Assembly (NCBI GenBank): GCA_964505155.1
Contig: CAZDGL010000001.1
Span: forward strand, 1,286 to 65,285
Source of the DNA: an uncultured Candidatus Saccharibacteria bacterium
GTDB lineage: Bacteria > Patescibacteriota > Minisyncoccia > Phycocordibacterales > UBA9973
DNA: 64,000 nt
Direction: 5' to 3'
Every line of letters starts with the position of its first letter. The first letter of the stretch is position 1. The position numbers and the translations under genes were made by a program. Shown in pieces: positions 7,094 through 46,969 of this stretch. The notes below the pieces were generated by a model that worked only from the letters and a program-made list of their open reading frames with translations, was not told the DNA's origin and did no database searches.

Positions 7094-7098
7094 AAAAA

Positions 7099-7599: not shown

Positions 7600-7916
7600 A
7601 TAATCTCTCCATAAACGTTGGTTAGGTGTTTCAAGTGGTGTTTCCCCACCGAAACTGATTCGGTAGGACTTAGACGTCCCTGCAGAATAGGAGCGTCATC
7701 CCATTCCCTGTAGTAGTTGGGAGTGAACAATTCATATCCCGATTTCTCGAAGTCTGCAAATGGTTTGATAGCATCCGCAACACGCAAGAATTGCATGTGA
7801 CTTTCACGCAACATACCGACAAGCTCATAGAGGACGACCTTCTTAGTATCGTCCCCTACATCATGAATAATCGATTCCACGAAATCGGCAAACAGAGGGA
7901 GCTTATTCACATTCAT
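7596..7916 (-). CDS. hypothetical protein
   Basis: 106 aa ORF overlapping the previous stop. Confidence 0.4.
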   Translation of the reverse strand: MNVNKLPLFADFVESIIHDVGDDTKKVVLYELVGMLRESHMQFLRVADAIKPFADFEKSGYELFTPNYYREWDDAPILQGRLSPTESVSVGKHHLKHLTNVYGEII

Positions 7917-8058
7917 GCATCGACGTCCTTGATTGAGGGATTAAACGGAACTTCCATAAGCTCGTTTAGAATCTCTCTATCAAGCTTTCTCAATTAATAG
8001 TCGATCTGTCTGCGAAGATCAAGCAGGAAATCAATAAGCTCGGATCTTTCTTTGTCGT

Positions 8059-8457
8059 TCACTCGTCACTCTCCAAAAAGTATATGAAGTTCTTGTCTGC
8101 GGTGAAATTCGTAATGACGATGTTATAATACCCTTCGTCGGGTACGTCAAACGAAATCTCCTGCACACATCCCTTTTCTAAGGCACCTGCAATAGGTTCA
8201 CTCTCGTCTTCCTCGGTGGACGGATCGTCCATAGGAGCAACAAAAATTCCGAAATTTACTTCATCTTTTGCTTCACAATCTGGTGAAACTAGCGTAAGTG
8301 TGCTATGACTGGAAGGATCGAACTTGTTCAGGAATACAAGAGAAGAATTGGCAAACAACTTCCCACTGACGAACATCGGATATCCCTGCGGTGCAGCGAA
8401 TGCACCGACAGTCAACATACCAACGATAGCTGAACTTAGAACCAGATTTTTAAGCAT
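8059..8457 (-). CDS. secreted or periplasmic protein with signal peptide
   Basis: An internal Met gives MLKNLVLSSAIVGMLTVGAFA (signal-peptide-like) then an acidic mature region; the track ORF extends to 8511. Confidence 0.45.
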   Translation of the reverse strand: MLKNLVLSSAIVGMLTVGAFAAPQGYPMFVSGKLFANSSLVFLNKFDPSSHSTLTLVSPDCEAKDEVNFGIFVAPMDDPSTEEDESEPIAGALEKGCVQEISFDVPDEGYYNIVITNFTADKNFIYFLESDE

Positions 8458-8462
8458 TGTAG

Positions 8463-8657
8463 TCACTCCTTTTTGTTGTAGAACAATTCCGCTCCTGCGA
8501 CAAGCATACATCCGCTTGCTGAGCCAACGATAATAACTGCGAGAATGAATTGGAGGATAGTTTCCATATTTTCCATTACTCCTGATGCGAACGAGGCAAG
8601 ACCAAGCGAAGCAGTAGCAAAGATGAAAGCACGCATAACAAAAAACCTCTCGTTCAT
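8463..8657 (-). CDS. small hydrophobic membrane protein
   Basis: 64 aa ORF with two hydrophobic segments. Confidence 0.3.
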   Translation of the reverse strand: MNERFFVMRAFIFATASLGLASFASGVMENMETILQFILAVIIVGSASGCMLVAGAELFYNKKE

Positions 8658-8791
8658 TTCTGAAGAGAGGTTAGCTCATTTCTACAAAAGAGTCAAGTGG
8701 TTTTTAAAAGAAAAGTGGTGCTTCTAGAAGAAATCGAATCTTCGACTATCCCTTACCAAAGGATTATTTTACCATTAGAACTATAGAAGCA

Positions 8792-8867
8792 TGGTGCTTT
8801 CAATCAGGTTCGAACTGATGGCCTTTGCCGTGTCGAGGCAACGCTCTCCCAACTGAGCTATGAAAGC
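8792..8867 (-). tRNA. tRNA-Val (anticodon GAC)
   Basis: Acceptor GCTTTCA/TGAAAGC, D-arm GCTC-AGTTGGGA-GAGC, anticodon stem TTGCC/GGCAA, loop TCGACAC (C33), T-arm ATCAG-TTCGAAC-CTGAT, CCA encoded. Confidence 0.55.
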
Positions 8868-9214
8868 AAATTTAAGTGATCGGTAACCCCAATAAATTCA
8901 TCCCGATAATCTGGACCGATTGCTGCGCAGGTTAGAGTCGGTACACCATCGAATACGGTTCGACCTTCGTCCACAATAATAGCGGTAATCAATCCACGGT
9001 ACTTTGCTACATCAACAACCTGAAGCAACTCTTCCTCAGATTTGACTTCCAACACTACCTTAGTGAAGGAATCATTATAAAGCCACTCTAAAACGCGAGT
9101 ATCATCCATATTTTCGACGGTTGCCTTCAGTGAAGCATGTGCTCCCTGAGAAACCATCTTTCCTGCTCCCATACCAATATCAGTACGCATCAGGATAATC
9201 TGCTTTAGGTCCAT
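8858..9214 (-). CDS. peptidyl-tRNA hydrolase, PTH2 family
   Basis: IILMRTDIGMGAGKMVSQGAHASLKA matches the PTH2 signature (R.DL.MGKGK..AQ..HA); ATG at 9212..9214 with a GGAAGG SD; the track uses an upstream TTG. Confidence 0.75.
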   Translation of the reverse strand: MDLKQIILMRTDIGMGAGKMVSQGAHASLKATVENMDDTRVLEWLYNDSFTKVVLEVKSEEELLQVVDVAKYRGLITAIIVDEGRTVFDGVPTLTCAAIGPDYRDEFIGVTDHLNLLS

Positions 9215-9231
9215 GACCAACCTTCCAAAAA

Positions 9232-9305
9232 TGGTACCCAGTGAGGGAATCGAACCCCCGATGTCGCGGTGTAAACGCGATGCTTTCCCATTTAGCTAAC
9301 CGGGC
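9232..9305 (-). tRNA. tRNA-Val (anticodon UAC)
   Basis: Acceptor GCCCGGT/ACTGGGT (two G.U), anticodon stem TCGCG/CGCGA, loop TTTACAC, T-arm GGGGG-TTCGATT-CCCTC, CCA encoded. Confidence 0.65.
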
Positions 9306-9444
9306 ATAATAAAATCCGCTGCAGTGAAATAAGGCCGGTGCTTATTCCATACTATAACGAGTATGTCTGTTTAGCGACCGTGTCAAGGCATCGTTATATA
9401 CCAAGGATCCAAACGGCACAGAACTACAACTATCTGGTGGAGCT

Positions 9445-10080
9445 TCATCCCTTTCGGAACGAAACCCCTAACTTTCGACCTTTATACCATCCTTCTGGTA
9501 TCTGGTCAAGCTTTTTTATCTTACGATTCTCTGTTCCATTAGTGATCCACATAGATCCGAACTGAGAATTTTTCTCACCTTGTTGGTGAAGGGAATTAGC
9601 TTCACCTATTTTACGCTTATGATCATCTGAAAGATGTGACCCTGTAGAATCATATCCTAAATTTTTTTTAGCCCTATCAGCTAAAGCTTGTCTATGTGCA
9701 GAATTTGATTGTACTTTTAGTTTTGTGGCAATAATACTCTTGGCACGTTCTTCTTCAGTAAATCCAAATCTACGAGGTGTTAAATTATTTTGGTTGATAT
9801 ACCCAAATCCACCTTTACCACCGGGACAAATATTATAAGTGTTTGATAAATTACAAAAATCTTCAGTTACCAATTCAGCTTCCTTAGAGATCATATCGGC
9901 TTCATTATCGAATTGGTAGAGAATCTCTCGCTGGAAGTTCTCAATACCATATTTTTTAATAGCACGTCTGATCTGATTCCCAGACCCTAAGTACCTATCA
10001 TTCAGATCAGAAGTCTGATGCTTACCACGATAGATTTTACCATTAATCAGGTTTGTAGTCTGGTAGACGATATAATGCAT
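9445..10080 (-). CDS. GIY-YIG homing endonuclease (Seg-like), paralog family member
   Basis: MHYIVYQTTNLINGKIYRGKHQT...YLGSG motif; 211 aa; about 70% identical at the N-terminus to 39404..40060 and 6718..6951. Confidence 0.8.
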   Translation of the reverse strand: MHYIVYQTTNLINGKIYRGKHQTSDLNDRYLGSGNQIRRAIKKYGIENFQREILYQFDNEADMISKEAELVTEDFCNLSNTYNICPGGKGGFGYINQNNLTPRRFGFTEEERAKSIIATKLKVQSNSAHRQALADRAKKNLGYDSTGSHLSDDHKRKIGEANSLHQQGEKNSQFGSMWITNGTENRKIKKLDQIPEGWYKGRKLGVSFRKG

Positions 10081-10085
10081 AAAAG

Positions 10086-10132
10086 GGAAACTCCAGAACG
10101 CTTTTGCTATTATTTAGCGTTCTGGAGTTTCC
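10086..10132 (-). promoter_or_regulatory. 16-bp-stem hairpin with CTAAATAATAGCAAAA loop upstream of the GIY-YIG gene
   Basis: ggaaactccagaacgc / gcgttctggagtttcc; loop TTTTGCTATTATTTA; the SD lies in the 3' stem half. Confidence 0.6.
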
Positions 10133-10136
10133 GAAG

Positions 10137-10208
10137 TGGACTGATGGGGGATCGAACCCCAACTACCGCATTGCAAGTGCAGTGTGCTCCCATTATCACT
10201 ATCAGCCC
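10137..10208 (-). tRNA. tRNA-Ala (anticodon UGC)
   Basis: Acceptor GGGCTGA/TCAGTCC (G3.U70), anticodon stem CTGCA/TGCGG, loop CTTGCAA, T-arm TGGGG-TTCGATC-CCCCA; CCA not encoded. Confidence 0.7.
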
Positions 10209-10223
10209 AATAACTAACGAATT

Positions 10224-10297
10224 TGGTACCTGAGCCGCGAATCGAACGCGAGTGGACGGTTCCACAGACCGTCGCTTTACCACTAAGCTACTCAGGC
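10224..10297 (-). tRNA. tRNA-His (anticodon GUG), alphaproteobacterial type (no G-1, G1:U72, A73)
   Basis: Acceptor GCCTGAG/CTCAGGT with G1.U72, discriminator A, position -1 is U; anticodon stem ACGGT/ACCGT, loop CTGTGGA; T-arm TCGCG-TTCGATT-CGCGG; CCA encoded. Confidence 0.7.
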
Positions 10298-10327
10298 ATA
10301 ATCTCTATTACTTATATATGACACTTT

Positions 10328-10582
10328 TCACTCAGTGTCAACGGAAATCTTTTCGAGTGTGGATTTTCTTTTCACTTTGAAGAGTGGGGTAAGTTTGTAG
10401 ACGTAAACCTCATCCTCTTCAAGAAAATCGTCAAGATCGATATTGACGGGATCCTTCACGTCAAAAACGTACATATCCATATTTGATCCATCAGATCCAT
10501 CCAGATCAACCAGAGGATCGATGCCGGTCATTACCACATAGAAATCCTTGATTGAAGGACTTGGTTTCTTCTTAGCTGCCAT
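10328..10582 (-). CDS. hypothetical acidic protein
   Basis: Internal start MAAKKKPSPS with an AAGGA SD; the track's upstream start would lie inside the terminator hairpin. Confidence 0.4.
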   Translation of the reverse strand: MAAKKKPSPSIKDFYVVMTGIDPLVDLDGSDGSNMDMYVFDVKDPVNIDLDDFLEEDEVYVYKLTPLFKVKRKSTLEKISVDTE

Positions 10583-10593
10583 TTCTTTTTCCT

Positions 10594-10625
10594 TTGAAAA
10601 ATGGAGGAGCATTGTCTGCTCCTCC
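10594..10625 (-). terminator. rho-independent terminator (minus strand)
   Basis: GGAGGAGCA-gacaa-TGCTCCTCC followed by ATTTTTC, directly after the SPFH gene stop. Confidence 0.6.
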
Positions 10626-10642
10626 ATGTTTATAGTTTTATC

Positions 10643-11533
10643 TCACTGAGGAGTAGGTGTCAGATTCAGAAATGGTACTGCTGAACCCGGAATCATTTGT
10701 GCAGGAAGCTTTCCGTCCCACCGCTCAGCTTGCGTGAGTCGGATTAGATCCGGACTCTGCTTGAGAGCATCACCCTTGGCACGAATAGCATCAGCGTCTG
10801 CTTCACCTCGGATCCGAACAGCTTCTGCTGAGGCTTTGGCTTCAGCTAGTTGTGAGTCAGCACGTGCGTTTGCTTGCGTCACGGCAATCTCAGCATTGAT
10901 CTTTTCACGTTCGGCATTCTGACGGATCTTCTGAACTTCAACCTCGGCCATCATTCGGGCTTCGATAGACTGCTCATACTCGTCAGAAAAGTCGATATTC
11001 TCAATCTGAACCGAGATAATACTAACTGGACCTTCAACTGCAGCAATGATTGCTTGTTCAATATCAGTATTCAACTTAGCTCGATCCTGAACAATCGTTA
11101 CCGCATTATATCGACCGAACACGTTCTTGGTCTCTTCGTAAACCTTTGGATCAACCAAACGAAGGATCATATTGGATTCAGACCCATACTGTCGATAAAC
11201 CTCGTCTACAAAATCCGGTGCGATAACATAGTTCAATGAAAGTCGGACAGTTGCAGTCTGCTGGTCCTTAGAATATGCTGCAAGTCCACCAGTATACGTT
11301 CCGTCAGAATTCTGTGTTGCGTATGTTCGCACATTATCCCGAACCGAGATATCAACCACGTCATCTAGGAATGGAAGCTTGAATCCCAACCCCGGATTTG
11401 CTACACCCTGAAAAGCACCATTTCGAAGAATAACACCTCGATCACCCTCGTTTACTGTATAGAAACTTCCAAAAAACGTTGAAAGTCCTACGAGAGCAAC
11501 AATAAGAGCTAGTACACCTATTACATATTTCAC
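10643..11533 (-). CDS. SPFH / band-7 (HflK/C, prohibitin-like) membrane protein
   Basis: N-terminal TM then YTVNEGDRGVILRNGAFQGVANPGLGFKLPF...VRDNVRTYATQ (SPFH core) and an Ala/Glu-rich coiled-coil C-terminus; GTG start overlaps the upstream micro-ORF stop. Confidence 0.75.
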   Translation of the reverse strand: MKYVIGVLALIVALVGLSTFFGSFYTVNEGDRGVILRNGAFQGVANPGLGFKLPFLDDVVDISVRDNVRTYATQNSDGTYTGGLAAYSKDQQTATVRLSLNYVIAPDFVDEVYRQYGSESNMILRLVDPKVYEETKNVFGRYNAVTIVQDRAKLNTDIEQAIIAAVEGPVSIISVQIENIDFSDEYEQSIEARMMAEVEVQKIRQNAEREKINAEIAVTQANARADSQLAEAKASAEAVRIRGEADADAIRAKGDALKQSPDLIRLTQAERWDGKLPAQMIPGSAVPFLNLTPTPQ

Positions 11534-11646
11534 TTAGTTTCTCCTTTAGAAGTCTTGAAACGAATATTATCAATACACCACCATATTCCCATCCACAAGA
11601 CGAATGCGATTACGATGATGCCTACTGCTAGAAATAGCTTAGTCAT
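11530..11646 (-). CDS. small membrane protein (38 aa), translationally coupled
   Basis: MTKLFLAVGIIVIAFVLWMGIWWCIDNIRFKTSKGETK; ATGA and GTGA overlaps with the neighbouring genes. Confidence 0.3.
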   Translation of the reverse strand: MTKLFLAVGIIVIAFVLWMGIWWCIDNIRFKTSKGETK

Positions 11647-11725
11647 CTTTTGCGTCCCTTCCACACTGAAGAATAATCCAAATCATTGTTCCAATCAAAG
11701 CCACTGAGGCAAGAAAATAAAGCAT
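11639..11725 (-). CDS. small membrane protein (28 aa), translationally coupled
   Basis: MLYFLASVALIGTMIWIILQCGRDAKDD; its start overlaps the phosphatase stop (TAATG). Confidence 0.3.
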   Translation of the reverse strand: MLYFLASVALIGTMIWIILQCGRDAKDD

Positions 11726-12444
11726 TATGCCATCCACTCCGCATTTGTTTTAAATTTATCCATGAAGTTAAACTTCGAATCAATCTGTACAGTATTGTAC
11801 ATCATCAACTCAAACTCTTCATCTATCACAAGTGCGGACAATAGTCCACCGAAAACGCATGACGTATCGAGATTGATACGATTCTTTCTCCATGTGATAT
11901 CATCCTGTGGAGTATGTCCATGAACAACCTTTTTATCAAATGGATGAGTGTAGTCTAAAAACTTATCGCGGATCCAAAGTGAATCATTCCAGTTCTGGTC
12001 ATTCAGGGAATACGAAGGATTGACTCCAGCATGAACGAAGAAGTGCTTTCTGGTTTCATAATACTGACGAGTATTAGTCAGAAACTTCCAATGTCCTGCA
12101 GGAAGATAATCATACCCTATTGTGGTATAATCAAACCCATAAGACTTGTAGCACTCGGGATAATACTGATAATGACCAATAGATCCTTCGCGCATGGCTT
12201 CCATAAACATATCTTCGTGATTACCACGTAGGAAAACGCATTCTTGACGCATACCATACGCAATAAGTTTATCGATCACTCCCTTGGAATCAGGACCACG
12301 ATCAATGTAATCACCCAAAAAGATGCGGACGTGTTCTGGAAATTGCTTATCCAGAGCATCCAGCATTTCGTTCAGTTCGTTCAGACATCCGTGAATGTCT
12401 CCGATAGCGATATATTTACTCACTAGATTTCTCCGCACATGCAA
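11725..12444 (-). CDS. Ser/Thr protein phosphatase, PPP / metallophosphoesterase family (lambda-PPase-like)
   Basis: GDIHGC, GDYIDRGPDS and GNHE motifs in order. Confidence 0.85.
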   Translation of the reverse strand: MHVRRNLVSKYIAIGDIHGCLNELNEMLDALDKQFPEHVRIFLGDYIDRGPDSKGVIDKLIAYGMRQECVFLRGNHEDMFMEAMREGSIGHYQYYPECYKSYGFDYTTIGYDYLPAGHWKFLTNTRQYYETRKHFFVHAGVNPSYSLNDQNWNDSLWIRDKFLDYTHPFDKKVVHGHTPQDDITWRKNRINLDTSCVFGGLLSALVIDEEFELMMYNTVQIDSKFNFMDKFKTNAEWMA

Positions 12445-12486
12445 AAATATTAAAAAGATAAATAGCTCTATAAGGAGCTATCAAAA

Positions 12487-13131
12487 ATGTACTGTACATA
12501 TCTTACCATTTATTCAGGAAACTTATTGCCACCATTTTATATCGGGTATACTTCTATTTCAAGAATAGAATCTGGGTATAACGGAACAGTAACTTCACAA
12601 CGTTACGGAACAATATGGAAATCAGAACGAAAAGTCAATAAACATCTGTTCAAAACCATCATATTAAAACAATTCCATAACAGAAAAGAAGCATTATTAG
12701 CAGAATGTCAATTACATGAAAAATTAAAAGTTGATAAAAATCCTTTATATATCAACCAATCTTGTCAAAAATCAGACGGATTTACTTGTATAGGACACTC
12801 AAAGGAATCACGTAAAAGAATGTCAGAAACCAGAAAAGGTCGTAAAGGTCCAAATCTCGGTCGAGTATTAACTGAAGAATGGAAAGAAAATATCTCCAAA
12901 GGAAATAAAGGAAAACCAAAATCTGAAACTACAAAGAAAAAAATGTCGGAATCATTTAAAACTAGAAGATGGTGGACTAACGGTATTATTGATAAATTTA
13001 CGTCAGAATACCTCGGTGAAGGATGGAGACGTGGCATGAGAAAAAATCCTAATAGAAAAGGATTTCTTCCCGGTAATCAATATCGATTCAATCCAAAAAA
13101 CCATGATATTCCTGCCAAGCATGATAACTGA
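12487..13131 (+). CDS. GIY-YIG homing endonuclease (Seg-like) with NUMOD3 repeats
   Basis: YCTYLTIYSGNLLPPFYIGYT...; repeats SKESRKRMSETRKGRKG / TEEWKENISKGNKGK; preceded by GATAAATAG plus an SD-containing hairpin. Confidence 0.7.
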   Translation: MYCTYLTIYSGNLLPPFYIGYTSISRIESGYNGTVTSQRYGTIWKSERKVNKHLFKTIILKQFHNRKEALLAECQLHEKLKVDKNPLYINQSCQKSDGFTCIGHSKESRKRMSETRKGRKGPNLGRVLTEEWKENISKGNKGKPKSETTKKKMSESFKTRRWWTNGIIDKFTSEYLGEGWRRGMRKNPNRKGFLPGNQYRFNPKNHDIPAKHDN

Positions 13132-13936
13132 TGTATTCAACAACTCTATGTTTGTCCATTGCGTATAATCCTGCGCAGGCCAGTGAGTTAAGTTCTACGA
13201 TTTTTGGACCGTTCTCCGTCAATGCGACATCGCAGATATAGACAGAATCCGGTTGCCAGATATGGTTAGCCATCTTCCATGCCATATCCATACAGTCCTT
13301 ATCCCAATCATGTCGGATGTCAAGGACATTATCCCATCGGTATTCGGATCCATCGACCACTTCACGATTGACAATCAAAAACCGAAATTCGGCTTTGATG
13401 TTCTTTGCTGAGGAAATCAGGCATAGAGTCTCATCCTGAACACTGGTCAATTGCATGGAGGACGATAGCTCGTCTGCCACATTATCAATAGTGATAACAA
13501 ATCCAGTGAAAGTCTTGAACCCGGATACCGGACGAATGAACACGCAATCTGATTTGAAAATATCAAATACTCGAAGTGGATTATCTCTCACTTCTTTGAA
13601 AGGAAGAATGATGTAGTCCGCATTGAGTAGAGAATTCTTAGGAAGATTTGGGTAATAGAAATTGCAATTCATGTTCTGACCGATGCCGTAGGCACCCGGT
13701 GTGAAACCCATCTTGCATTTGGATACGTATCCATGTGTGCCATAAAGCACAACAATGTCTGCAGAAGTATATGGACCGTAATCCTGAACCTCTGCAAACG
13801 GAATGTATTTAGTTTCATGAAGGGAGCATCCGTGAGCTTTGATAGCTCCTAGAAGATCTCCTACCGTGGATCTAGAATCCAGAATATGAGTGTCAACTGC
13901 CCACGCTACTTGGTTTGGTGTATACCGCATTTTCAT
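13088..13936 (-). CDS. ATP-grasp-fold protein (putative peptide or amine ligase)
   Basis: C-terminal VYICDVALTENGPKIVELNSLACAG resembles the ATP-grasp E.N..PG signature; 282 aa. Confidence 0.45.
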   Translation of the reverse strand: MKMRYTPNQVAWAVDTHILDSRSTVGDLLGAIKAHGCSLHETKYIPFAEVQDYGPYTSADIVVLYGTHGYVSKCKMGFTPGAYGIGQNMNCNFYYPNLPKNSLLNADYIILPFKEVRDNPLRVFDIFKSDCVFIRPVSGFKTFTGFVITIDNVADELSSSMQLTSVQDETLCLISSAKNIKAEFRFLIVNREVVDGSEYRWDNVLDIRHDWDKDCMDMAWKMANHIWQPDSVYICDVALTENGPKIVELNSLACAGLYAMDKHRVVEYISYHAWQEYHGFLD

Positions 13937-14192
13937 ATTCTTCCATAGCTAATCTGGCTTCGTATGCACTAACGTGTACGTCAATTTCCATTTCTAGATC
14001 GAGTCCACATCGGTATCCTGTTTCATAATGGTTCCATACCAACCACGATCCTACGAATTTTCGGACTTGTTCTTTTCTCAAAACAAATCCGAAAATCTTC
14101 CACTCAGGAATCCGAAAGGTGACCAGTTTATCTCGATAAGCTCTGGTTCTATCTGCATCGAGATCTAGATAATGAACATCGATTAGTTCCAT
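13893..14192 (-). CDS. hypothetical protein
   Basis: 99 aa ORF. Confidence 0.35.
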   Translation of the reverse strand: MELIDVHYLDLDADRTRAYRDKLVTFRIPEWKIFGFVLRKEQVRKFVGSWLVWNHYETGYRCGLDLEMEIDVHVSAYEARLAMEEYENAVYTKPSSVGS

Positions 14193-14686
14193 TAGAAATC
14201 ACCATGATAGATGAGAGTATCTACCCGAACCGACTCAAGTGAGTCAAAGTATCCTACCCATGCACCACAGTAGATGGTCTGACCATCGAAATCGAAAGAC
14301 CACTTATCGATGTCCTGCTTCATGGAACGATAGCGAGTCTCGATCTCCGTCTTGAGACGATAGGCATTTTCAAGATTATCAAAGACCATGATAAACTCAG
14401 GGTTCCCGGTAGAATGACCGAAAGAGTCACCCGTCGAATAAGTCAACCACACAAGAATGTATGGCTTCCCAACTTCGAGATCGATATTCTTGTGGGTAGC
14501 TACCAGAGTACCACCTCTTCCAGAAGTGATGTATTCGAGATCCACCGTTCCGTGGTCGGATCTCCATTCACCCCACTCTTCACCAGAGTGCCAATATGAA
14601 CCACCATGAAGGTGATACTTCACATAATAGAGCTTCTCGTCTGGCTTCTGAATCTTCTTCTTGCCCATCAGATTCTCACTTCTCAA
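14192..14686 (-). CDS. hypothetical protein
   Basis: 164 aa ORF. Confidence 0.35.
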   Translation of the reverse strand: MRSENLMGKKKIQKPDEKLYYVKYHLHGGSYWHSGEEWGEWRSDHGTVDLEYITSGRGGTLVATHKNIDLEVGKPYILVWLTYSTGDSFGHSTGNPEFIMVFDNLENAYRLKTEIETRYRSMKQDIDKWSFDFDGQTIYCGAWVGYFDSLESVRVDTLIYHGDF

Positions 14687-15050
14687 ACTTGGATTTCAGC
14701 TTCAGATACGTTGCATACTCTTCCTGCTTCTGTTTGTCAAGACGAGCCTTATCTTCTTTCTTCTTTTGTTTTCGAGCCTCAGCATCCCGGTTCGATTCAA
14801 TAGCTATCCGAAGCTCATACTCATAATCGTTCTCTAAACGATATCCTTCCAGATAGCATTTAAGCTCTGCTGGATCATCATAATATCCAGTTTCAACATC
14901 AGCAGCAAAAATCATATCTTCAGTATGAATGTCCCATTCTGTAGATTTTGATTGAATGAGATCGATTAGCTCGGACGCATTGAGATAGACACATCCTGTC
15001 TTACCAAGGTCGTGCCTAAAATGCTTGTTTTCTCTTTTTTGATTTACCAT
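14676..15050 (-). CDS. hypothetical protein with basic, charged C-terminal tail
   Basis: 124 aa ORF. Confidence 0.35.
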   Translation of the reverse strand: MVNQKRENKHFRHDLGKTGCVYLNASELIDLIQSKSTEWDIHTEDMIFAADVETGYYDDPAELKCYLEGYRLENDYEYELRIAIESNRDAEARKQKKKEDKARLDKQKQEEYATYLKLKSKFEK

Positions 15051-15075
15051 TTGAGATCATCATAAATGAGGAGAA

Positions 15076-15151
15076 TGGTGCCCCTAGCAGGCTTCGAACC
15101 CACGACCTTCTACTTACAAGGTAGCTGCTCTACCAACTGAGCTATAGAGGC
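15076..15151 (-). tRNA. tRNA-Thr (anticodon UGU)
   Basis: Acceptor GCCTCTA/TAGGGGC, D-arm GCTC-AGTTGGTA-GAGC, anticodon loop CTTGTAA (27:43 G.A mismatch), T-loop TTCGAAG, CCA encoded. Confidence 0.7.
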
Positions 15152-15161
15152 ATTATTTGGT

Positions 15162-15425
15162 TTAAACGTATACCGTGATTGTCTTTGAAACAGGAAAGAC
15201 TTCCTTGACTTCAATTTCATCCGGTTCATGTTCGAAAGGTTGTTCGTCTTGATATTCCGTAGCACCCACCGAATAGGTAGTCTTATAGAATTTGCCTTCA
15301 TGTTCGAAAACAACTTCATGCTTGACAGACCACCGATCAGTATCGATAATCTCGTCTGAGATCAACTCAAGATCCACGTCACCCCAACAGACTAATTCCT
15401 GTAGATCATTCTTTTTGAATAACAT
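15162..15425 (-). CDS. hypothetical protein
   Basis: 87 aa ORF. Confidence 0.35.
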   Translation of the reverse strand: MLFKKNDLQELVCWGDVDLELISDEIIDTDRWSVKHEVVFEHEGKFYKTTYSVGATEYQDEQPFEHEPDEIEVKEVFPVSKTITVYV

Positions 15426-15450
15426 TCAATTACCTTTCATAATATGAAAA

Positions 15451-15526
15451 TGGAGGAAGCGGTGGGAATCGAACCCACTTAGCGACTGTTTTGCAGACAG
15501 CGACGTATCCAACCCGTCCCGCAACC
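15451..15526 (-). tRNA. tRNA-Cys (anticodon GCA), acceptor stem with two U.U mismatches
   Basis: Anticodon stem GCTGT/ACAGT, loop CTGCAAA, T-arm GTGGG-TTCGATT-CCCAC, discriminator U plus CCA; acceptor GGTTGCG/CGCTTCC pairs 5 of 7. Confidence 0.55.
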
Positions 15527-38395: not shown

Positions 38396-38424
38396 TTGAC
38401 AATTTTTCAAAACTAAGGTAGATT
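38396..38424 (+). promoter_or_regulatory. sigma70-type early promoter TTGACA-N17-TAGATT
   Basis: -35 at 38396..38401, -10 at 38419..38424; the ATG lies 25 nt downstream with a GGAG SD. Confidence 0.65.
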
Positions 38425-38448
38425 GGTTTCAACAAATGGAGAACGAAT

Positions 38449-38652
38449 ATGAACACCTACCGGATTGTGAAGCGAGCCTTCAGCGAATACACCGAGATCG
38501 AAACGGTCGAAGGTTGGGTAAACGCAATGGAGCGTGCCAGCATTCTTGAATTCACTCACAACGACGGTGAATATTTGGTTCTCTCGATGGATGAGCCGAA
38601 TAAGACTGAATCTACGGATCCCTATTTCCAGAGTGGTCTGGATTACCTTTAA
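38449..38652 (+). CDS. small GC-rich early protein (MN... family leader)
   Basis: 67 aa; leader and first codons (caaatggagaacgaatATGAACACC) are paralogous to the 62674 gene leader; GC3 far above the genome background. Confidence 0.5.
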   Translation: MNTYRIVKRAFSEYTEIETVEGWVNAMERASILEFTHNDGEYLVLSMDEPNKTESTDPYFQSGLDYL

Positions 38653-38664
38653 GGAGACCCTTCA

Positions 38665-38871
38665 ATGAACATCCGCTATTGGTTCGAAACCCTCAACGAC
38701 GCTCTGGAGTCTGAAGGACTGGTCGAATACTGGCCACTCGGTCTCAACATCGAATACGACCGAACCGTAGCCTTCGCTGCTAATGGAAAGTGGATCTCGG
38801 TCTATCGCGACAGCAATGGACGCTACGAACGTCCGATCCATTATTCGACAAAAATGCAAAACACCTATTGA
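38665..38871 (+). CDS. small GC-rich protein
   Basis: 68 aa, AAGGAG SD, starts MN. Confidence 0.5.
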   Translation: MNIRYWFETLNDALESEGLVEYWPLGLNIEYDRTVAFAANGKWISVYRDSNGRYERPIHYSTKMQNTY

Positions 38872-38896
38872 CACTTTTCAAAAGTTGAGATAGATT
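38868..38896 (+). promoter_or_regulatory. sigma70-type early promoter TTGACA-N17-TAGATT
   Basis: -35 at 38868..38873, -10 at 38891..38896. Confidence 0.65.
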
Positions 38897-38932
38897 GTTT
38901 TCATCAAATCGAAACCGGGAAAGGACATCCCC

Positions 38933-39127
38933 ATGAACGATTTTTCGAAGAAGACCCTGAAGACCCTCGCGAAGCGCGGGATCACCATCTACGGGATCAC
39001 CTTGATCCCTGACTTCAGCAATCCGATGCCTTTCGCGAATGGGACTCGCGGGTACAAGATCAACGACAACGACTGCGGTCGGATCTGGACCTTTCAGGAA
39101 GTCCTCAACGCAGCGAAGGGAGCCTAA
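38933..39127 (+). CDS. small GC-rich protein
   Basis: 64 aa, starts MN. Confidence 0.5.
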   Translation: MNDFSKKTLKTLAKRGITIYGITLIPDFSNPMPFANGTRGYKINDNDCGRIWTFQEVLNAAKGA

Positions 39128-39128
39128 A

Positions 39129-39326
39129 ATGACCGAAATGGCAACCGCACGGTTTATGCGACACTACCTCGAAATCGGTGATAAACTGAAGAGGATTCAG
39201 GAATTCCATGACAATCACTTCGAGGTGGATCCTGATAATATCAACTGGGGAGATTGTGGTTCGGTAGCTCATATCAATATGATGCTGAGTGAGGTTCTCG
39301 ACTTTATCGAACCTGAGCAGAGATAA
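39129..39326 (+). CDS. small GC-rich protein
   Basis: ATG at 39129 with a GGAG SD; 65 aa; the track's longer 39039 start overlaps the previous gene. Confidence 0.45.
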   Translation: MTEMATARFMRHYLEIGDKLKRIQEFHDNHFEVDPDNINWGDCGSVAHINMMLSEVLDFIEPEQR

Positions 39327-39330
39327 GAAA

Positions 39331-39356
39331 AGGAGCCGAAAGGCTCCTTAATTCTT
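39331..39356 (+). terminator. rho-independent terminator (GNRA tetraloop hairpin)
   Basis: AGGAGCC-GAAA-GGCTCCT then TAATTCTT; near-identical to the hairpin at 40726. Confidence 0.6.
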
Positions 39357-39403
39357 GGTGCGGACTAGCGGTAACGATCCGCTTTCTACTCGTTGGCAAC
39401 GAG

Positions 39404-40060
39404 TCATAATTCCTTTATACGAAGCCCGCTAAATTTTCGACCTTTATACCAACCTTCTGGTATCTGGTCAAGTTTATTTATCTTTCGGTTCCTAGTTCCA
39501 TCAGTTATCCACATAGTTCCGAAAGCAGGATTTTTCTGACCGTTTCTATCAACTTTTTGTTGAGCCTCAGATATTTTTCGTTTAATCTCGTCAGATTGAG
39601 TTTTACCTAGTTGAGAATAAACAAAATTTGATGACGGTATATGTTTGATACCTTTTTCTTTTTTTGCTAAGGCACCTTTAATTCCAAGTTCTCTTAGTTT
39701 TTCTTTTGAAAATTTACCTATAGAACTGTCATATCCTTTACGAACATATTCGTTTTTCAAATTTGACGAATTGATGTATTTAAACCCTCCACCGAACCCA
39801 CCTACACAAATATTGTAGGTGTTTGATAGTCCACACCAATCTTCATCTACTAATTCAGCTTCTTTGAGAAGCATATCTTGTTCGGTATCAAAACGATATA
39901 AGATCTCTTTATTAAAATTTTCACGTCCGTATTTCTTTACGGCATGCTTCAAATGAGTACCAGATCCAAGATATCCATCGTCTAAATTCTTAGTTTGATG
40001 GATGCCTCGATATACTTTATCGTTTAAGAGATTGGTAGTTTGGTAGACGATGTAGTGCAT
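39404..40060 (-). CDS. GIY-YIG homing endonuclease (Seg-like), paralog family member
   Basis: MHYIVYQTTNLLNDKVYRGIHQT...YLGSG; 218 aa. Confidence 0.8.
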   Translation of the reverse strand: MHYIVYQTTNLLNDKVYRGIHQTKNLDDGYLGSGTHLKHAVKKYGRENFNKEILYRFDTEQDMLLKEAELVDEDWCGLSNTYNICVGGFGGGFKYINSSNLKNEYVRKGYDSSIGKFSKEKLRELGIKGALAKKEKGIKHIPSSNFVYSQLGKTQSDEIKRKISEAQQKVDRNGQKNPAFGTMWITDGTRNRKINKLDQIPEGWYKGRKFSGLRIKEL

Positions 40061-40065
40061 TTAAG

Positions 40066-40110
40066 GGAGTCCTGATTACCGTTTACTATTATTTAGGTAA
40101 TCAGGACTCC
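40066..40110 (-). promoter_or_regulatory. 15-bp-stem hairpin with conserved CTAAATAATAGTAAAC loop upstream of the GIY-YIG gene
   Basis: ggagtcctgattacc / ggtaatcaggactcc; the SD AGGA lies in the 3' stem 10 nt from the ATG. Confidence 0.6.
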
Positions 40111-40115
40111 AAGGG

Positions 40116-40190
40116 AGCGTCCAGTCGGATTCGAACCGACACTTACTGGTTGGAAGCCAGTCGTGCTTAGCCGTTAAACACTATAGAAGC
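40116..40190 (-). tRNA. tRNA-Gly (anticodon UCC)
   Basis: Anticodon stem ACTGG/CCAGT, loop CTTCCAA, T-arm GTCGG-TTCGAAT-CCGAC, discriminator U; acceptor with one U.C mismatch; CCA not encoded. Confidence 0.65.
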
Positions 40191-40277
40191 ATATGGCCGC
40201 TGTGCTGCATTACACCATAGGGCATCAGGAAAATTGGCTGCCCCACCCAGAATTGAACTAGATCCTGCGACAAGGAT

Positions 40278-40307
40278 ATTTATATGCATTTTATCACGTG
40301 GTGTCAA
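40278..40307 (-). promoter_or_regulatory. sigma70-type promoter TTGACA-N17-TATAAAT (minus strand) upstream of tRNA-Gly
   Basis: Minus-strand TTGACAccacgtgataaaatgcaTATAAAT; transcription would run through a roughly 90 nt structured leader into tRNA-Gly. Confidence 0.55.
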
Positions 40308-40353
40308 CAAAAAAGAATCTTTCAAAGATTTTTCTTTAAGCCGAAGAATCCCG

Positions 40354-40382
40354 TTGACAAATTCAGAGAAATACGCGATATT
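40354..40382 (+). promoter_or_regulatory. sigma70-type promoter TTGACA-N17-GATATT
   Basis: -35 at 40354..40359; weaker -10. Confidence 0.45.
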
Positions 40383-40428
40383 CAGATTATAGAAATTGAG
40401 CCGAAACAAACAACCGAAGGAGACTAAC

Positions 40429-40716
40429 ATGACTGCTACCGCTACGAAGCTTGGTCGCAAGGACGCTCTCACCAGCAAGGTGAAGGCCCACTACCTCACC
40501 AACCTCGACACCCTGACCAACCGCTACTACGCTGGTCGCTTGATGGACGAGGGTTTCATTTCGCAGGAGAATGTCCCTACCGGAAAGCAGGGACGTCCCC
40601 CGGTTCGCTACATCCTGACGGGTAAGGGTAAGGGTTTCCTGAGCCTTGCCTCGAAGTGGAACAAGCAGAAGGACGAGACGGTCATCGAGATTAACCCTTT
40701 CGAGATCAAGCTCTAG
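40429..40716 (+). CDS. GC-rich small basic protein with a GKQGRPP AT-hook-like motif
   Basis: ATG at 40429 with an AAGGAG SD; 95 aa; GC about 57% versus a genome around 40%; TGKQGRPPVRYILTGKGKG resembles the H-NS/Lsr2-type Q/RGR DNA-binding loop. Confidence 0.5.
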   Translation: MTATATKLGRKDALTSKVKAHYLTNLDTLTNRYYAGRLMDEGFISQENVPTGKQGRPPVRYILTGKGKGFLSLASKWNKQKDETVIEINPFEIKL

Positions 40717-40725
40717 AACGGAAGA

Positions 40726-40750
40726 GGGAGCCGAAAGGCTCCCTTTTTAC
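40726..40750 (+). terminator. rho-independent terminator
   Basis: GGGAGCC-GAAA-GGCTCCC followed by TTTTTAC. Confidence 0.7.
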
Positions 40751-41701: not shown

Positions 41702-43410
41702 TCGGATCCTTTGATAAACGAATAGTTCTTCTCTTTGATAAATTCAATCACTCTATCAAACTTGGACTGAAGCTGTGGTTTGTGGGAAATAATGATCGTG
41801 TTGGTCTCAGGCAGAAGTTTCTGGATTTGTTCAAACTCGTCCATTCCTTCCTCGTCCATGGAGGAATCCATAACCTCGTCCAAGATCAGGAGATTGGTAT
41901 TGATCGAATTCTTCTGCTTGGCAATATCCCTGAAAGCCCACAGAATGGCAAAATCAATTCGCATGGTCTCACCTGCGGACAGGGAGCCATAGCTGATTTC
42001 ATTGTATCCGAACTTGATGGATTCCTTGAAGGTCTCGTCCAGTTTGAATTCGATATCCATTCCCATTTGAGTGATGTATTTGTTGATTTTTTTGTTCAGG
42101 ATTGGAATGTACTTCTTGATGATTTTGGCCTTGATCCCGGTATCCTTGAGAAGCTCAATTGAGGTCTCTAGATCTTCCTTAGTAATAGAAAGAAGATTCT
42201 TTTTCTGCTTGACAAGAACCAGAGCATCCTTAGAATCTTGGAGACGCTCCTCAGTATCACGCTGTAGATCATCAGTTTTAGAAAGCTTGAGAATGTCATT
42301 GGATAGACGCTTTCGTTCGGACTTCTTTGAATCAATGGTGATCTTCAGCTTGGATATCTCGGCATTATAGCGTGCGACATCCTTCGTTAGTCTTTCAAGC
42401 TCCTCGATATCCTGATCGAGCTTCTTTAGCTCTTGCTCCACTTTGGTGATATTGTCAATCTGATTTTCAATAATTCCATCCAGATTGGATATGATGCTCT
42501 GAGAATGGTCGTGCGATATTCCCTGCAGACACGTTGGACACTTGACATTTTCCGTAAAGAAGCTTCTATCTTCTTTGTTTGTGGTAAGCTTCGTATTCAG
42601 CTTAACTCGAACGTCTTTCAATGCTGACCGTCTGGATGGTGCCTTCGTGTATTTCTCAATTTCCTCGGATAGAACCTCAACAAATCCCTTCAGTTCGATT
42701 TCTCGATCCACGGACGCGATGATAGTCGTATCGATTACCTCGATCTGCTTCTTCAGATCCTCGATCTTATCCTCGTTGTTGGATTGAATAGAGTCAATAG
42801 TCTTTTCCAGATACGAAATACGTTCTACCAGATTATCGTATTCATTGGAATTCTTGACAATATCTTCCTTCAGATCCACAAGTCTCTTCTTAGCAATCAC
42901 ATTCATGATTGAAAAGATACGGATATCCAGCAGATCTTCTACTACAATACGACGTTCTGCTGGTGTTAATTCTAGTAGAGGCTTATGAAGTTTGGCAGAT
43001 ACAATATTGATCTGCTTGAATCCCTTATACGAAGACTTCAGAATCGTCTTTTCTAGAATCTCCTGATAGTCTAGAGTAGAAGCTTCCTTGTTTAAAATCT
43101 CTCCATCGCATATGATATCAAATACTGCAGGCTTAAGTCCGCGTCTAATCATGTAGGACTTGCCTAGAGTATCAAATTCTACTTCAACTAGACAATCCTT
43201 CTTGTTGGTCCAGCTAACCAAATCCGGTTTGTTGATATTTCTATACGGCTTTCCATACAACGCAAAAGTCACGGCATCCATCACTGTGGATTTGCCGTGA
43301 CCGTTTTTACCAATGAACAAAGTATTCCGGTGAGAATCGAGTCTCACTTCGGTCATGACGTTGCCAGTACTTAAAAAGTTCTTCCAGCGAATTACTTTAA
43401 TCTTCAGCAT
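41698..43410 (-). CDS. 46: recombination endonuclease subunit gp46 (Rad50/SbcC-like ATPase)
   Basis: Walker A GKNGHGKST, coiled-coil middle, CPTC zinc hook, C-terminal LILDEVMDS (Walker B); 570 aa. Confidence 0.85.
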   Translation of the reverse strand: MLKIKVIRWKNFLSTGNVMTEVRLDSHRNTLFIGKNGHGKSTVMDAVTFALYGKPYRNINKPDLVSWTNKKDCLVEVEFDTLGKSYMIRRGLKPAVFDIICDGEILNKEASTLDYQEILEKTILKSSYKGFKQINIVSAKLHKPLLELTPAERRIVVEDLLDIRIFSIMNVIAKKRLVDLKEDIVKNSNEYDNLVERISYLEKTIDSIQSNNEDKIEDLKKQIEVIDTTIIASVDREIELKGFVEVLSEEIEKYTKAPSRRSALKDVRVKLNTKLTTNKEDRSFFTENVKCPTCLQGISHDHSQSIISNLDGIIENQIDNITKVEQELKKLDQDIEELERLTKDVARYNAEISKLKITIDSKKSERKRLSNDILKLSKTDDLQRDTEERLQDSKDALVLVKQKKNLLSITKEDLETSIELLKDTGIKAKIIKKYIPILNKKINKYITQMGMDIEFKLDETFKESIKFGYNEISYGSLSAGETMRIDFAILWAFRDIAKQKNSINTNLLILDEVMDSSMDEEGMDEFEQIQKLLPETNTIIISHKPQLQSKFDRVIEFIKEKNYSFIKGSE

Positions 43411-43867
43411 GTGATTTTATATACTCTATAGTTCTTTCCAATATTGTCACATCCTCTTTAGAATGTCCAATCATTGTATTGCAATTCACACACAATAATT
43501 TTCTAATTTTTCCAGTATTGTGATTATGATCTACACCTAATGATAATCCATTTTGCGGTGGATTAGAACAAATGAAGCACAAATTGTTTTGCTTTTCTAC
43601 CATTTCTTCGTATTCATCTATTGAAATACCAAATAAATGACGAAGTTTATAGTTCTTTCTTCCTCGAAAACCAAGTTTATCATGTCTTACTTTTCGAGTA
43701 TTCTGTCTTTCTTCTATGGAAAGAGAATGATATTCATTTTTACTCTTTTGAATTTCACACGCTTTACATTTAGGCTTATAAATGAATTCTACCTTTTTAC
43801 CTTTTCGCTGAACATAAAACTCCGAAACTGGTTTAGTAAGCTTACATTTAGTACAGGTTTTTTCCAT
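43397..43867 (-). CDS. HNH endonuclease
   Basis: VDHNHNTGKIRKLLCVNCNTMIGH; CTAAATA plus a hairpin upstream. Confidence 0.75.
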   Translation of the reverse strand: MEKTCTKCKLTKPVSEFYVQRKGKKVEFIYKPKCKACEIQKSKNEYHSLSIEERQNTRKVRHDKLGFRGRKNYKLRHLFGISIDEYEEMVEKQNNLCFICSNPPQNGLSLGVDHNHNTGKIRKLLCVNCNTMIGHSKEDVTILERTIEYIKSHAED

Positions 43868-43945
43868 TCAATACTCCTAGTGGAAATGTTTCTAAGAGTA
43901 TTTAGTTTTTCCATTCTTCCAGCGTACAGTCTTTATTTTCAACAA

Positions 43946-44692
43946 TTAATCAAATTCCAGATAGAGATCAAGCTTGTCGACTGCCTGATTATAATACTTC
44001 GGATCCATTTCCATACAGATCCACTTCCGATTTGTCTGCCGAGCAGCAAATGCCGTTGTACCAGATCCTGCGGTATTGTCCAGCACCAATTCACCCTCAT
44101 TCGTGTAGGTTCGAATGAGATATGCAAACAAATCGATAGGCTTCTGGGTAGGATGCTCCGTATCCGTCACTGATGTAAATTCCAGAACCGAATGCGGATA
44201 GTTGGTGTATTCCTGAATGAATTCTTCACCCGGTTTGATACCCATCTTTCCGTAGTTTGGAGTCTGGTTCTTTCCACCAATGCAGACCTTATTGATCTTC
44301 TTCACACCCTGAGGATTGTAAGTGGGCAGATTTTTGTAGAAAATCAGGACGTTTTCGTGTGATTTCATCGGCATCTTCTTAGCATTCAAGAAGCCGGTCT
44401 TTCGGGATTTGTACCAGATCCATTCATACTTCAGATATTGGATCTGGGACATACCGAGAGTCTTGTCAAATGGTGTCTGTGCGGTAAGCACAATCACACC
44501 ATTTGGCTTCAGGACTCTCCAATACGCTGGCCACAATTCCTCGTATGGAATGATGTTATCCCATGGGTTCTCGGTCGTGCCGTATGGAAGATCCGCTAGA
44601 ATCATATCCACCGATCCCTCAGGAAGCAGTGGGAATACTTTCAAGCAATCATCATTATAGAATGTGCCGTCAGGGAATTCCTTCTTAATCAT
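43946..44692 (-). CDS. DNA methyltransferase, beta-class (CcrM-like), paralog of 40928..41701
   Basis: ADLPYGTT ... DNTAGSGTTAFAA; about 55-60% identical to the other copy over conserved blocks. Confidence 0.75.
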   Translation of the reverse strand: MIKKEFPDGTFYNDDCLKVFPLLPEGSVDMILADLPYGTTENPWDNIIPYEELWPAYWRVLKPNGVIVLTAQTPFDKTLGMSQIQYLKYEWIWYKSRKTGFLNAKKMPMKSHENVLIFYKNLPTYNPQGVKKINKVCIGGKNQTPNYGKMGIKPGEEFIQEYTNYPHSVLEFTSVTDTEHPTQKPIDLFAYLIRTYTNEGELVLDNTAGSGTTAFAARQTNRKWICMEMDPKYYNQAVDKLDLYLEFD

Positions 44693-45047
44693 TATGTTGT
44701 GGAACTTCTCTATATACAGTCACAGGAATTTCATTGAAAGTGACCACAGGTTCCAATATGTAAGGAACACCATTCTTGAACCTATATCCCCAAATTTCTC
44801 CTCTATTATCACCTTCTGCAGACATGAATACGACATCACCATTGACGGAAGGATCATTCAAGGCATCAAGTGCCCAATCTTCCCACAAAAAGTCCTTATG
44901 CTCCATAGCATCGTAGTCGAATTCAAGTCCATACGTTTCGGAATAGCTGATGCTCTGATAGTTTTCTTGAGCAGCTTCAACAAGCTTATCAGCTACGTCC
45001 ATGGACATCTTAAGTGTATTTGTTTTAATTCCAATATTCCAACCCAT
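44685..45047 (-). CDS. hypothetical protein
   Basis: 120 aa ORF. Confidence 0.35.
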   Translation of the reverse strand: MGWNIGIKTNTLKMSMDVADKLVEAAQENYQSISYSETYGLEFDYDAMEHKDFLWEDWALDALNDPSVNGDVVFMSAEGDNRGEIWGYRFKNGVPYILEPVVTFNEIPVTVYREVPQHND

Positions 45048-46140
45048 TCACTCTCCTATTTTTTCAAGTTCTAATGCTTCTCTGTAAATAGAATCCATGA
45101 CACGAATTACCGCGTCCGATCTATTTCCTAAATTCATTCCTTTGATATGTGTAGTTATGTGCTTCGAAGTAGTATCGTTTTCAACAGCTACTACCTCTTC
45201 ATCACCTTCTACTACCACATCTTCCGTCAAATCATCGAATGTCAGCTTCAGAGGCTTAGATGCTTTGATTGCGTCTACCAATGAATTGTAGAGATACGGA
45301 TTTTGCTTGTTCTTTATTATCAATTGGACATAGACATCATTGTAGGATATCCGTCCATCCCGAATTCCCTTGACATCATCGAAGATCCGTTCTTCGGACT
45401 CCTGATTCAAATCATCGTAGACGTATCTACGGAAAACATTAAACGGATTTTCAACAAATTGTAGATCACTAGGATAATCCGTGTCCATGATATGAAAACC
45501 GCGTGGAGTGCCAAAATCTGCCCACGTATAGGCTCCTGTGGCTCCCAGATAGGTTATCGAACCGGACGACGATGGTGTGTGAAAATGGCCAGAAAGCGTC
45601 AAATCAAACTTCTTGAATTTCGCTGGATCCAGACCGTGCTCACACGACAATCCTGAATCCATTTTGAATCCATTGATTTCAAGATGGCCGAAACACATAG
45701 TAGAATGAGTCTCGGCCATCTTCTGCATGGACGCATGATAATTCTCTTCGTTAATCCAAGGCAACAAGAAAGTCTGTATACCACCGACCAAAATATCCTG
45801 TGCTTCGGTGTATATCTTTGCTTCCTTGTGCAGGAGTAACTCTAGAGCATTTAGAGCATTCGTATCCTTGTAGTATACGTCGTGATTCCCGGTTATGATT
45901 GAAAAATCAAATTCCTCAATCGGCTCCAGAAAGTGTGAGTATAGCACCTGCAAAGTCCGAAAGTCAATGTATTTTCGTGAGTCGACCAGATCACCCAAAT
46001 GCCAAACAGAAGAGATACCTTCTTCCTTTAGCTTTGGGAAGAAGGTTCTTCTGAAGAATTTTTCGGATGCTAGGTGAAAAGCTGTGTTATCGTTTCGGAT
46101 CCCAAAAGTGAGTGTCAGTTAGAATAGCAATTTTAGCCAT
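45048..46140 (-). CDS. 47: recombination nuclease subunit gp47 (Mre11/SbcD-like), interrupted by a +1 frameshift at the T4 run 46104..46107
   Basis: Main frame carries motifs II-V (WHLGDLVD, GNHD, GHLE, GHFH). A 17-codon frame from an ATG at 46138 with an AAGGAG SD encodes motif I (LTDTHF) in the +1 frame. Confidence 0.7.
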
Positions 46141-46333
46141 TTACCGACTCTCCTTTCATATTTTGTGTTGATTTATACAAAAGTGTATGTCCCTTGTGTT
46201 GTTTGTTTTTTCCTCTAGAAACTTGAATCACGTTCTAGTATATGCAGTTCTTTCATTCACTGATTCCTTCTTAGGTAGTGCTCTATCAATATAGTCTCTA
46301 ACATCCCGCAATCGCTTTACTAGGACTCCGTAC

Positions 46334-46969
46334 TCATTCGAATTCTTGCTCAAAGAATTCAGCTTCGTTACCAAATCCTGAATCATCACTGGGATCAACA
46401 TCTCTTGGTTCTTCATTACTTACTCCAACTTCTTCCATCTTCAGTTTTTTCTTGGCCTTACGCTCAGTGCGTCTACGCTCCATTTTCTTCTCAAACTTGT
46501 GGATGAATTCATTCAGGTTATCATAAGTCCCATCTTGATTCAAGGAAATGTTTTCCTCTTTTAGATGTTCTTCCAGATCCCAATTATCCACCACGTGATT
46601 GTGATAAGATTTGTACTTGATATAGGAAGTCTTTTCCTCCTCTTCAATTCTTCTCAGGAATGCGTACCACGAAATCGTGGTGAAGTATGCATGAGGGTTC
46701 TTATACTTTTCGATATCGAAATTATCGAAGTAGAGAATGCAGTTCTCGACCGCATCCGACTCCATTTCTTCCTTGAAAGAATAACCTATAAACTTACGAT
46801 TGTAGGTTAGACCCTTGGCAATCTTCAGGATGCATAGGCCACAGAAATCCGGTATTCGTGGTTTAGGATCGTCCTGATCCTCGGCTTCCCGAACCTTGGC
46901 CTTGTATTTCTTGATACTCTCTAGGAACTTTTCGTTATCAACGTAGTAGTTCTTTGGCAATTTTGACAT
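46334..46969 (-). CDS. 55: late-transcription sigma factor gp55
   Basis: KYKNPHAYFTTISWYAF collinear with T4 gp55 KYKNPHAYITQACFNAF. Confidence 0.8.
   Translation of the reverse strand: MSKLPKNYYVDNEKFLESIKKYKAKVREAEDQDDPKPRIPDFCGLCILKIAKGLTYNRKFIGYSFKEEMESDAVENCILYFDNFDIEKYKNPHAYFTTISWYAFLRRIEEEEKTSYIKYKSYHNHVVDNWDLEEHLKEENISLNQDGTYDNLNEFIHKFEKKMERRRTERKAKKKLKMEEVGVSNEEPRDVDPSDDSGFGNEAEFFEQEFE

Follow-up and report, generated by a model that had tools for sequence, protein, structure and literature searches.

A predicted phage gp47 (SbcD/Mre11-type) gene broken by one extra T: probable consensus error or very recent mutation rather than programmed frameshifting

In phage T4, gp47 is the product of a core gene required for recombination-dependent replication. 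Described cases in which a protein is obtained from a coding sequence spread over two frames are of several kinds. UUU_U is a weak site for +1 frameshifting, which a minority of species have in their RF2 genes in place of CUU_U, with much lower efficiency (PMC5009743). The PA-X protein of influenza virus arises by a +1 shift at UCC_UUU_CGU that takes place at a low level and without stimulators (PMC3498833; PMC5009743), and the product is a functional protein (PMC5009743). Slippage of the polymerase, in turn, has been described for tracts of 7-9 or more identical bases or for composites such as T5C5 (PMC5009743), while the "savior" indels of the herpes simplex virus (HSV) thymidine kinase (TK) gene illustrate a leaky compensation through slippage on the mutated run itself (Atkins et al., 2016, PMC5009743).

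The locus analyzed here lies in a stretch of 64,000 nucleotides (hereafter the window) and is read from the minus strand. Its features, in window coordinates, are the following:

46150..46155, minus strand: Shine-Dalgarno sequence (SD) AAGGAG of gp47, 9 nt before the ATG (direct read)
46087..46140, minus strand: 0-frame ORF MAKIAILTDTHFWDPKR plus TAA, 17 codons, of which codons 1-12 encode the true gp47 N-terminus
46104..46107, minus strand: TTTT run with the extra T, where relatives have TTT or TTC (Phe12) followed by GGG or GGT (Gly13) in DNA and codon alignments
45048..46103, minus strand: gp47 body, G13 to E363 plus stop, in the +1 frame; residues 12-347 of the gp47 of Pelagibacter phage HTVC008M align with 46103..45063
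45996..45998, minus strand: TTG, the first start of the downstream frame by ORF listing, opening a 316-aa ORF
45995..45990, minus strand: motif II, G49-D50
45945..45947, minus strand: GTG start of the 299-aa product recorded at NCBI (P0002, MLYSHF...), its position deduced from the length, with no SD before it
45890..45879, minus strand: motif III, GNHD
45686..45684, minus strand: motif IV, H152
45590..45579, minus strand: motif V, GHFH

Direct reading of the minus strand gives AAGGAG at 46155..46150, a spacer of nine nucleotides and ATG at 46140..46138, which bears out both the start signals and the 17-codon frame that the sequence-only reading had placed there. This 0 frame, which holds the motif I residues D9 and H11, ends at the TAA 46089..46087. 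The gp47 (+1) frame is closed on its 5′ side by the TAA 46121..46119 and stays open from 46118 to the stop at 45048..45050; the two overlap by 29 nt, with the TTTT inside the overlap. Across 46090..46115 the minus strand reads CACTTTTGGG, and once one T of the run is removed the junction becomes ...ILTDTHFGIRNDN..., giving a repaired gp47 of 363 aa that begins MAKIAILTDTHFGIRNDN... and contains all five phosphoesterase motifs. The fusion of the overlapping frames by the dropping of one T and the return of a D-x-H-x-G motif, both proposed earlier, are thus confirmed, since D9, H11 and G13 are all present. In the record as deposited, the whole catalytic domain does not occupy a single uninterrupted frame: motif I is split, with D9 and H11 in the 0 frame and everything from G13 onward in the +1 frame. 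The ORF tracked in that reading does begin at TTG 45998 and, over its 316 aa, is devoid of motif I (D9 and H11 are missing); the SD-like run nearest to this TTG, AAGGAAGAAGG, stands about 20 nt upstream and is too distant. A start of the gp47 frame at CTG 46118 was also considered and discarded, as it gives TLTF in place of TDTHF and does not restore motif I.

Several layers of evidence bear on the identity of the gene. Repaired gp47 scores 31.3 bits with PF00149 Metallophos (cut-off 21.5) and 32.5 bits with PF12850 Metallophos_2 (cut-off 27), and the 316-aa ORF from the TTG remains below the Pfam threshold at 17 bits. By tblastn against GenBank phages there are 2,516 matching records, which bear the annotation gp47, recombination endonuclease or SbcD-like subunit; among them HTVC008M and marine cyanophages, at 33-35% identity, match best and cover the repaired protein without a break from residues 1-3 to about 358. 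In an alignment of 34 sequences H11, G13, G49, D50, G84-N85-H86-D87, H152, G184, H185 and H187 are invariant and D9 is nearly so. The profile made from this alignment matches SbcD in the PDB (7dog_A at 3.8e-10, E. coli SbcD 6s6v_A at 2.1e-08) and archaeal Mre11 (4tug/3auz/3av0 at about 2e-4), and the single gp47 sequence used as query has no PDB match. Because Pfam, phage tblastn, alignment, PDB profile, the gp46 partner and the gene order all agree, the gene can be assigned, as the earlier reading had done from the letters, to the gp47/Mre11/SbcD-type nuclease subunits, with a predicted motif I that sits astride a one-nucleotide frame break in TTTT.

The partner gene is located downstream, beyond three intervening genes (window 43397-45047, minus strand):

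44685-45047, minus strand: orphan, 120 aa
43946-44692, minus strand: N6_N4 DNA methylase, PF01555
43397-43867, minus strand: endonuclease VII-like protein, PF02945
41698..43410, minus strand: gp46 (Rad50/SbcC-like partner ATPase), 570 aa, intact

This gp46 is recognized by PHROG 77 at 1.4e-136 and by Pfam AAA_23 and SMC_N, and it matches HTVC008M gp46 over its full length. At the same position between gp47 and gp46, HTVC008M has a single 2OG-Fe(II) oxygenase gene, and the interval looks like a variable or mobile insertion slot. On the other side of gp47, a 62-aa ORF with an ATG start (46228-46416, minus strand) shares 83 nt with the 3′ end of gp55 (46334-46969) and takes up some of the 190 nt that separate gp55 from gp47; neither Pfam nor PHROG gives a match to it. 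In the relatives found among Logan contigs a different, non-homologous gene directly abuts gp47. A second frameshift hidden in the gp55-gp47 spacer was considered and rejected, the upstream regions of the window and of these relatives not being homologous. The minus-strand TATAAAT at 46171-46177, 31 nt before the gp47 ATG, resembles the T4-type late promoter TATAAATA, which in the Logan contigs L082 and L083 immediately abuts the TTG start codon of gp47.

The window also carries 12 tRNA genes on its minus strand, at 4285-15526 and 39356-40190, specific for Pro, Ser (two), Thr (two), Val (two), Ala, His, Cys, Gly-GCC and Gly-UCC; neither tRNA-Phe nor tRNA-Trp is among them. The tRNA-Gly(GCC) gene (39356-39429) overlaps the 3′ end of the ORF 39404-40060 by 26 nt. 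Around it, from 38400 to 40750, there are no convincing minus-strand ORFs, and what is seen are short open frames on both strands together with the two tRNA-Gly genes, the plus-strand ones being 38449-38652, 38665-38871, 38933-39127, 39039-39326 and 40396-40716.

The comparison with gene 47 of related phages that had been proposed as a check was carried out, and none of the close relatives shows the same split. The window's own product at NCBI, P0002, which comes from a contig of 151,180 bp, has 299 aa and starts at GTG 45947. Two intact proteins lie closest to it: P0121 (362 aa, 91% identity), which shares a 90% cluster with P0002 and is present on Logan contigs L082 and L083, and P0001 (365 aa, 82% identity), on Logan contig L081. 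Their N-termini read MKIAILTDTHFGIRNDNTAFHLASEKFF..., exactly as the repair predicts. The 11 residues that the window encodes ahead of the T-run (KIAILTDTHF), like those that follow it, agree fully with the N-terminus of both intact proteins, which is far beyond chance. Together with the one-piece matches to HTVC008M and cyanophage gp47, this upholds the earlier statement that the repair recovers the gp47 N-terminus. At the site itself the codons are CAC TTC GGG in L082, CAC TTT GGG in L083, CAC TTC GGT in L081 and CAC TTT T GGG in the window; L083, at 91% amino acid identity, reads CAC TTT GGG ATC CGA where the window reads CAC TTT T GGG ATC CGA. In the DNA alignment with the close relatives the only gap falls exactly in the T-run. 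The best 80 IMG/VR loci and nearly all of the best 120 database proteins are in one frame from query residue 1-3, and more than 200 distant relatives pass through the site in one frame. Neither the shift site nor the two-frame layout is conserved among orthologues, be it in the three Logan contigs, in IMG/VR or among the proteins: the TTTT slippery tetranucleotide is not maintained because the Phe codon wobbles between TTC and TTT and, since the relatives are all in one frame, the split is unique to the window record.

Matches to repaired gp47 in the named-phage and IMG/VR collections reach no more than 33-41% identity, and the phage lineage is therefore itself new; it is also poorly sampled. 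Megablast of the locus and the surrounding 24 kb against GenBank phages retrieved no close relative, its sole matches being short segments of the major capsid gene with 72-78% identity to cyanophages; with respect to HTVC008M, the major capsid protein is 62% identical and gp47 33%. Relatives above 80% identity come from only three short Logan contigs (SRR22000166, SRR22000184 and SRR29782965). Exact and degenerate DNA patterns of the site, and a conserved downstream block, had no match in IMG/VR, JGI metagenomes or GTDB genomes, and a protein-based scan of the GTDB genomes gave relatives at 38% identity or less only. Exact-protein look-up with P0002, the 120-aa ORF, gp55, the methylase and gp46 gave no entry, and neither reads nor an independent assembly of the same phage came to light.

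The pattern of selection informs on the age of the lesion. The dN/dS of repaired gp47 is 0.081 against L083, 0.076 against L082 and 0.079 against L081, and between the intact L083 and L081 it is 0.094. With L081 as outgroup, the branch leading to the window accumulated 11 nonsynonymous and 31 synonymous changes, as against 6 and 25 on the sister branch (Fisher p = 0.58). The 12 codons before the break differ only synonymously, except for the start codon, which is ATG in the window and TTG in the relatives, and for an extra Ala2; purifying selection is strong on both sides of the extra T. No second stop or indel occurs in the 351 downstream codons, and a perfect SD and ATG still precede the 17-codon ORF; neither the relaxed selection nor the further disabling lesions of an established pseudogene are found. 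Selection thus acted on gp47 as a single reading frame right to the tip of the window's branch. Given selection like that on intact genes and the lack of a second lesion, the extra T either has arisen extremely recently or is absent from the DNA.

The quality of the assembly was appraised by comparing all HTVC008M ORFs with the window by tblastn. Sixteen other conserved core genes (DNA polymerase, RegA, gp62, gp44, gp45, gp46, gp55, UvsW, UvsY, gp3, gp23, gp22, gp21, gp20, gp19 and the C-terminus of gp18) each give a single HSP in one frame, most of them essentially end to end. These add up to 14.3 kb aligned, including 91 homopolymer runs of 4 or more and 449 of 3, and only the gp47 match begins late, with HTVC008M query residue 12 at window position 46103. 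PHROG scans of other suspect overlapping ORF pairs in the window disclosed no further split genes, the members of these pairs belonging to separate and complete families. A generally indel-ridden assembly was accordingly rejected, and in this clean context the frame break in gp47 is a lone event. The sequence GGATCC, which holds GATC, lies directly 3′ of TTTT, at 46097-46102; a methylation-linked base-calling error there is conceivable if the record derives from nanopore reads, because the phage encodes its own DNA methylase and methylated motifs give rise to systematic errors of base-calling.

Three causes had been left open by the sequence-only reading: a homopolymer error, a programmed +1 shift or slippage, and pseudogenization with reinitiation at the TTG. 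The homopolymer error stands and the other two are not supported. As the closest relatives are without the extra T and recoding signals are lacking, sequence error or a very recent mutation is to be preferred to a programmed event, and we would describe the lesion as an unprogrammed one-nucleotide insertion, probably with no evolutionary history, in an otherwise ordinary, selectively maintained gp47. Programmed +1 frameshifting at CAC_UUU_UGG would yield full-length gp47 and a 17-aa peptide in a fixed proportion, the P-site tRNA-Phe moving from UUU to the overlapping UUU and GGG being read next. The tetranucleotide does allow tRNA-Phe to re-pair with an identical UUU in the +1 frame; UUU_U is a bona fide weak +1 site (PMC5009743) and PA-X is a precedent (PMC3498833; PMC5009743), the overlap is short, and the conserved sequence is restored exactly. 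We nevertheless judge this very improbable, given three close and more than 200 distant relatives that stay in one frame with a variable Phe codon. The A-site UGG is neither a stop nor a slow, rare codon (11.1 per 1000 codons in the window's long ORFs), the 0-frame stop comes 5 codons after it, and GGG, the +1 codon, is used less than any other Gly codon of the window (1.7 per 1000), a rarity that disfavours the shift. There is no SD-like element 5′ of the site, where ACUGACACUCAC is without SD complementarity; 106 nt around and after it show no unusual RNA structure (z = -0.79, 38 of 200 shuffles folding equally well), and an Rfam scan of the site has no matches at E <= 1. Furthermore, ordinary long genes of the window, 5,933 codons in all, contain two in-frame TTT_TGG, the 17-aa product is without conceivable function, and no report of recoding in gp47/SbcD genes was found in the literature. 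That the RNA polymerase drops one U in a fraction of the mRNAs, thus restoring the frame, would fit a break located in a homopolymer; with a run of only 4 T, far from the roughly 7-9 or more of known tracts, and not conserved, such transcriptional slippage is scarcely credible. A settled pseudogene, or a deliberately truncated, nuclease-dead gp47 made from TTG 45998 or GTG 45947 and serving only as a structural partner of gp46, could appeal to the existence of the 316-aa ORF and to the 299-aa GTG product carried by the NCBI record. It is highly improbable, since neither start has a properly spaced SD, D9 and H11 are missing (G49-D50 as well in the GTG product) with scores below the Pfam threshold, the region before these starts is under the same purifying selection with synonymous changes only, dN/dS is 0.08 with no added lesions, and no relative is truncated likewise.

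Consensus error and fresh mutation, on the other hand, cannot be separated by the sequence alone. In our judgement, a single homopolymer indel in a core gene of a deposited phage genome more often turns out to be an error than to reflect biology. We give a probability of about one half to an error in the deposited consensus, produced by base-calling or assembly at a short homopolymer; we infer that the extra base is most likely in the record and not in the virion DNA. The phage would then make a normal gp47 of 363 aa, translated from the ATG at 46140 behind its SD, and the truncated ORFs of 299 and 316 aa would be artefacts of the gene callers. At a run of only 3-4 T a lone consensus error would be unusual, and the absence of other detected frameshifts lowers the prior for a random one, making a real mutation nearly as likely. 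This second reading, a very recent frameshift in the sequenced genome or clone, is possible, if somewhat less likely: the T might belong to a defective or attenuated variant, to a mutation of a laboratory stock, to a minor natural variant taken by the assembler or to an escape mutation. Most ribosomes that start at ATG 46140 would end after 17 codons, and any gp47 still made would be owed solely to a low-level +1 slippage, not programmed, of tRNA-Phe on UUU_U. The otherwise frameshift-free assembly speaks for it, as do selection data that fit a mutation too young for decay to follow and a UUU_U that permits perfect +1 re-pairing, the leaky compensation of indels being documented for HSV TK (PMC5009743). 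Against it, no relative carries the extra T, and by analogy with T4 a knock-out of this gene should be strongly counter-selected and would not be expected as the consensus of a population. It is a long shot that TTTT is present in virion DNA and that a few per cent of +1 slippage on UUU_U, with no stimulator, gives enough catalytic gp47 to work with gp46. If true, it would represent a freshly arisen "corrective" frameshifting through which a marine T4-like phage copes with an indel in one of its core recombination genes; the indel could be tolerated or even favoured, for instance as an escape from a host defence that senses the nuclease.

In practical terms, the annotation of the gene as a 299-aa hypothetical protein without catalytic motifs should give way to gp47 (SbcD/Mre11-like), with a frameshift or possible sequencing error marked at 46104..46107, and genome-wide recoding screens should leave out the TTTT site of gp47. 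Nothing in the sequence currently argues for a real insertion in a viable phage; should the insertion be real and the phage viable, the locus would offer a small natural test of the minimal need for an Mre11-type nuclease in a T4-like phage.

Set beside the known systems, the site shares with the CUU_UGA_C of RF2 (prfB) the Y-UU_U that allows P-site re-pairing, and its UUU_UGG is one base away from UUU_UGA; RF2, in contrast to the window site, has a stop in the A site, an SD-like stimulator 3 nt upstream, conservation among orthologues and a regulatory logic. In the PA-X case of influenza A, tRNA-Phe on UUU slips +1 at low efficiency and without a structural stimulator, and UUU is likewise found here; at the PA-X site the codon in the A site is rare and decoded slowly, whereas the window has an ordinary UGG and its site is unique to one record. 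The HSV TK indels lie in runs of 7-8 G, against the 4 T of the window, where the indel has no known selective benefit; as in TK, if the T were real, any gp47 would stem from low-level slippage on the mutated homopolymer itself. With HTVC008M the window has in common the gene order gp55 - gp47 - (insert) - gp46, and repaired gp47 aligns end to end with its counterpart (residues 3-359, 33% identity). All the phosphoesterase motifs of T4 and HTVC008M gp47 are also in the repaired protein and, unlike in these two, a single additional T interrupts the window ORF between H11 and G13.
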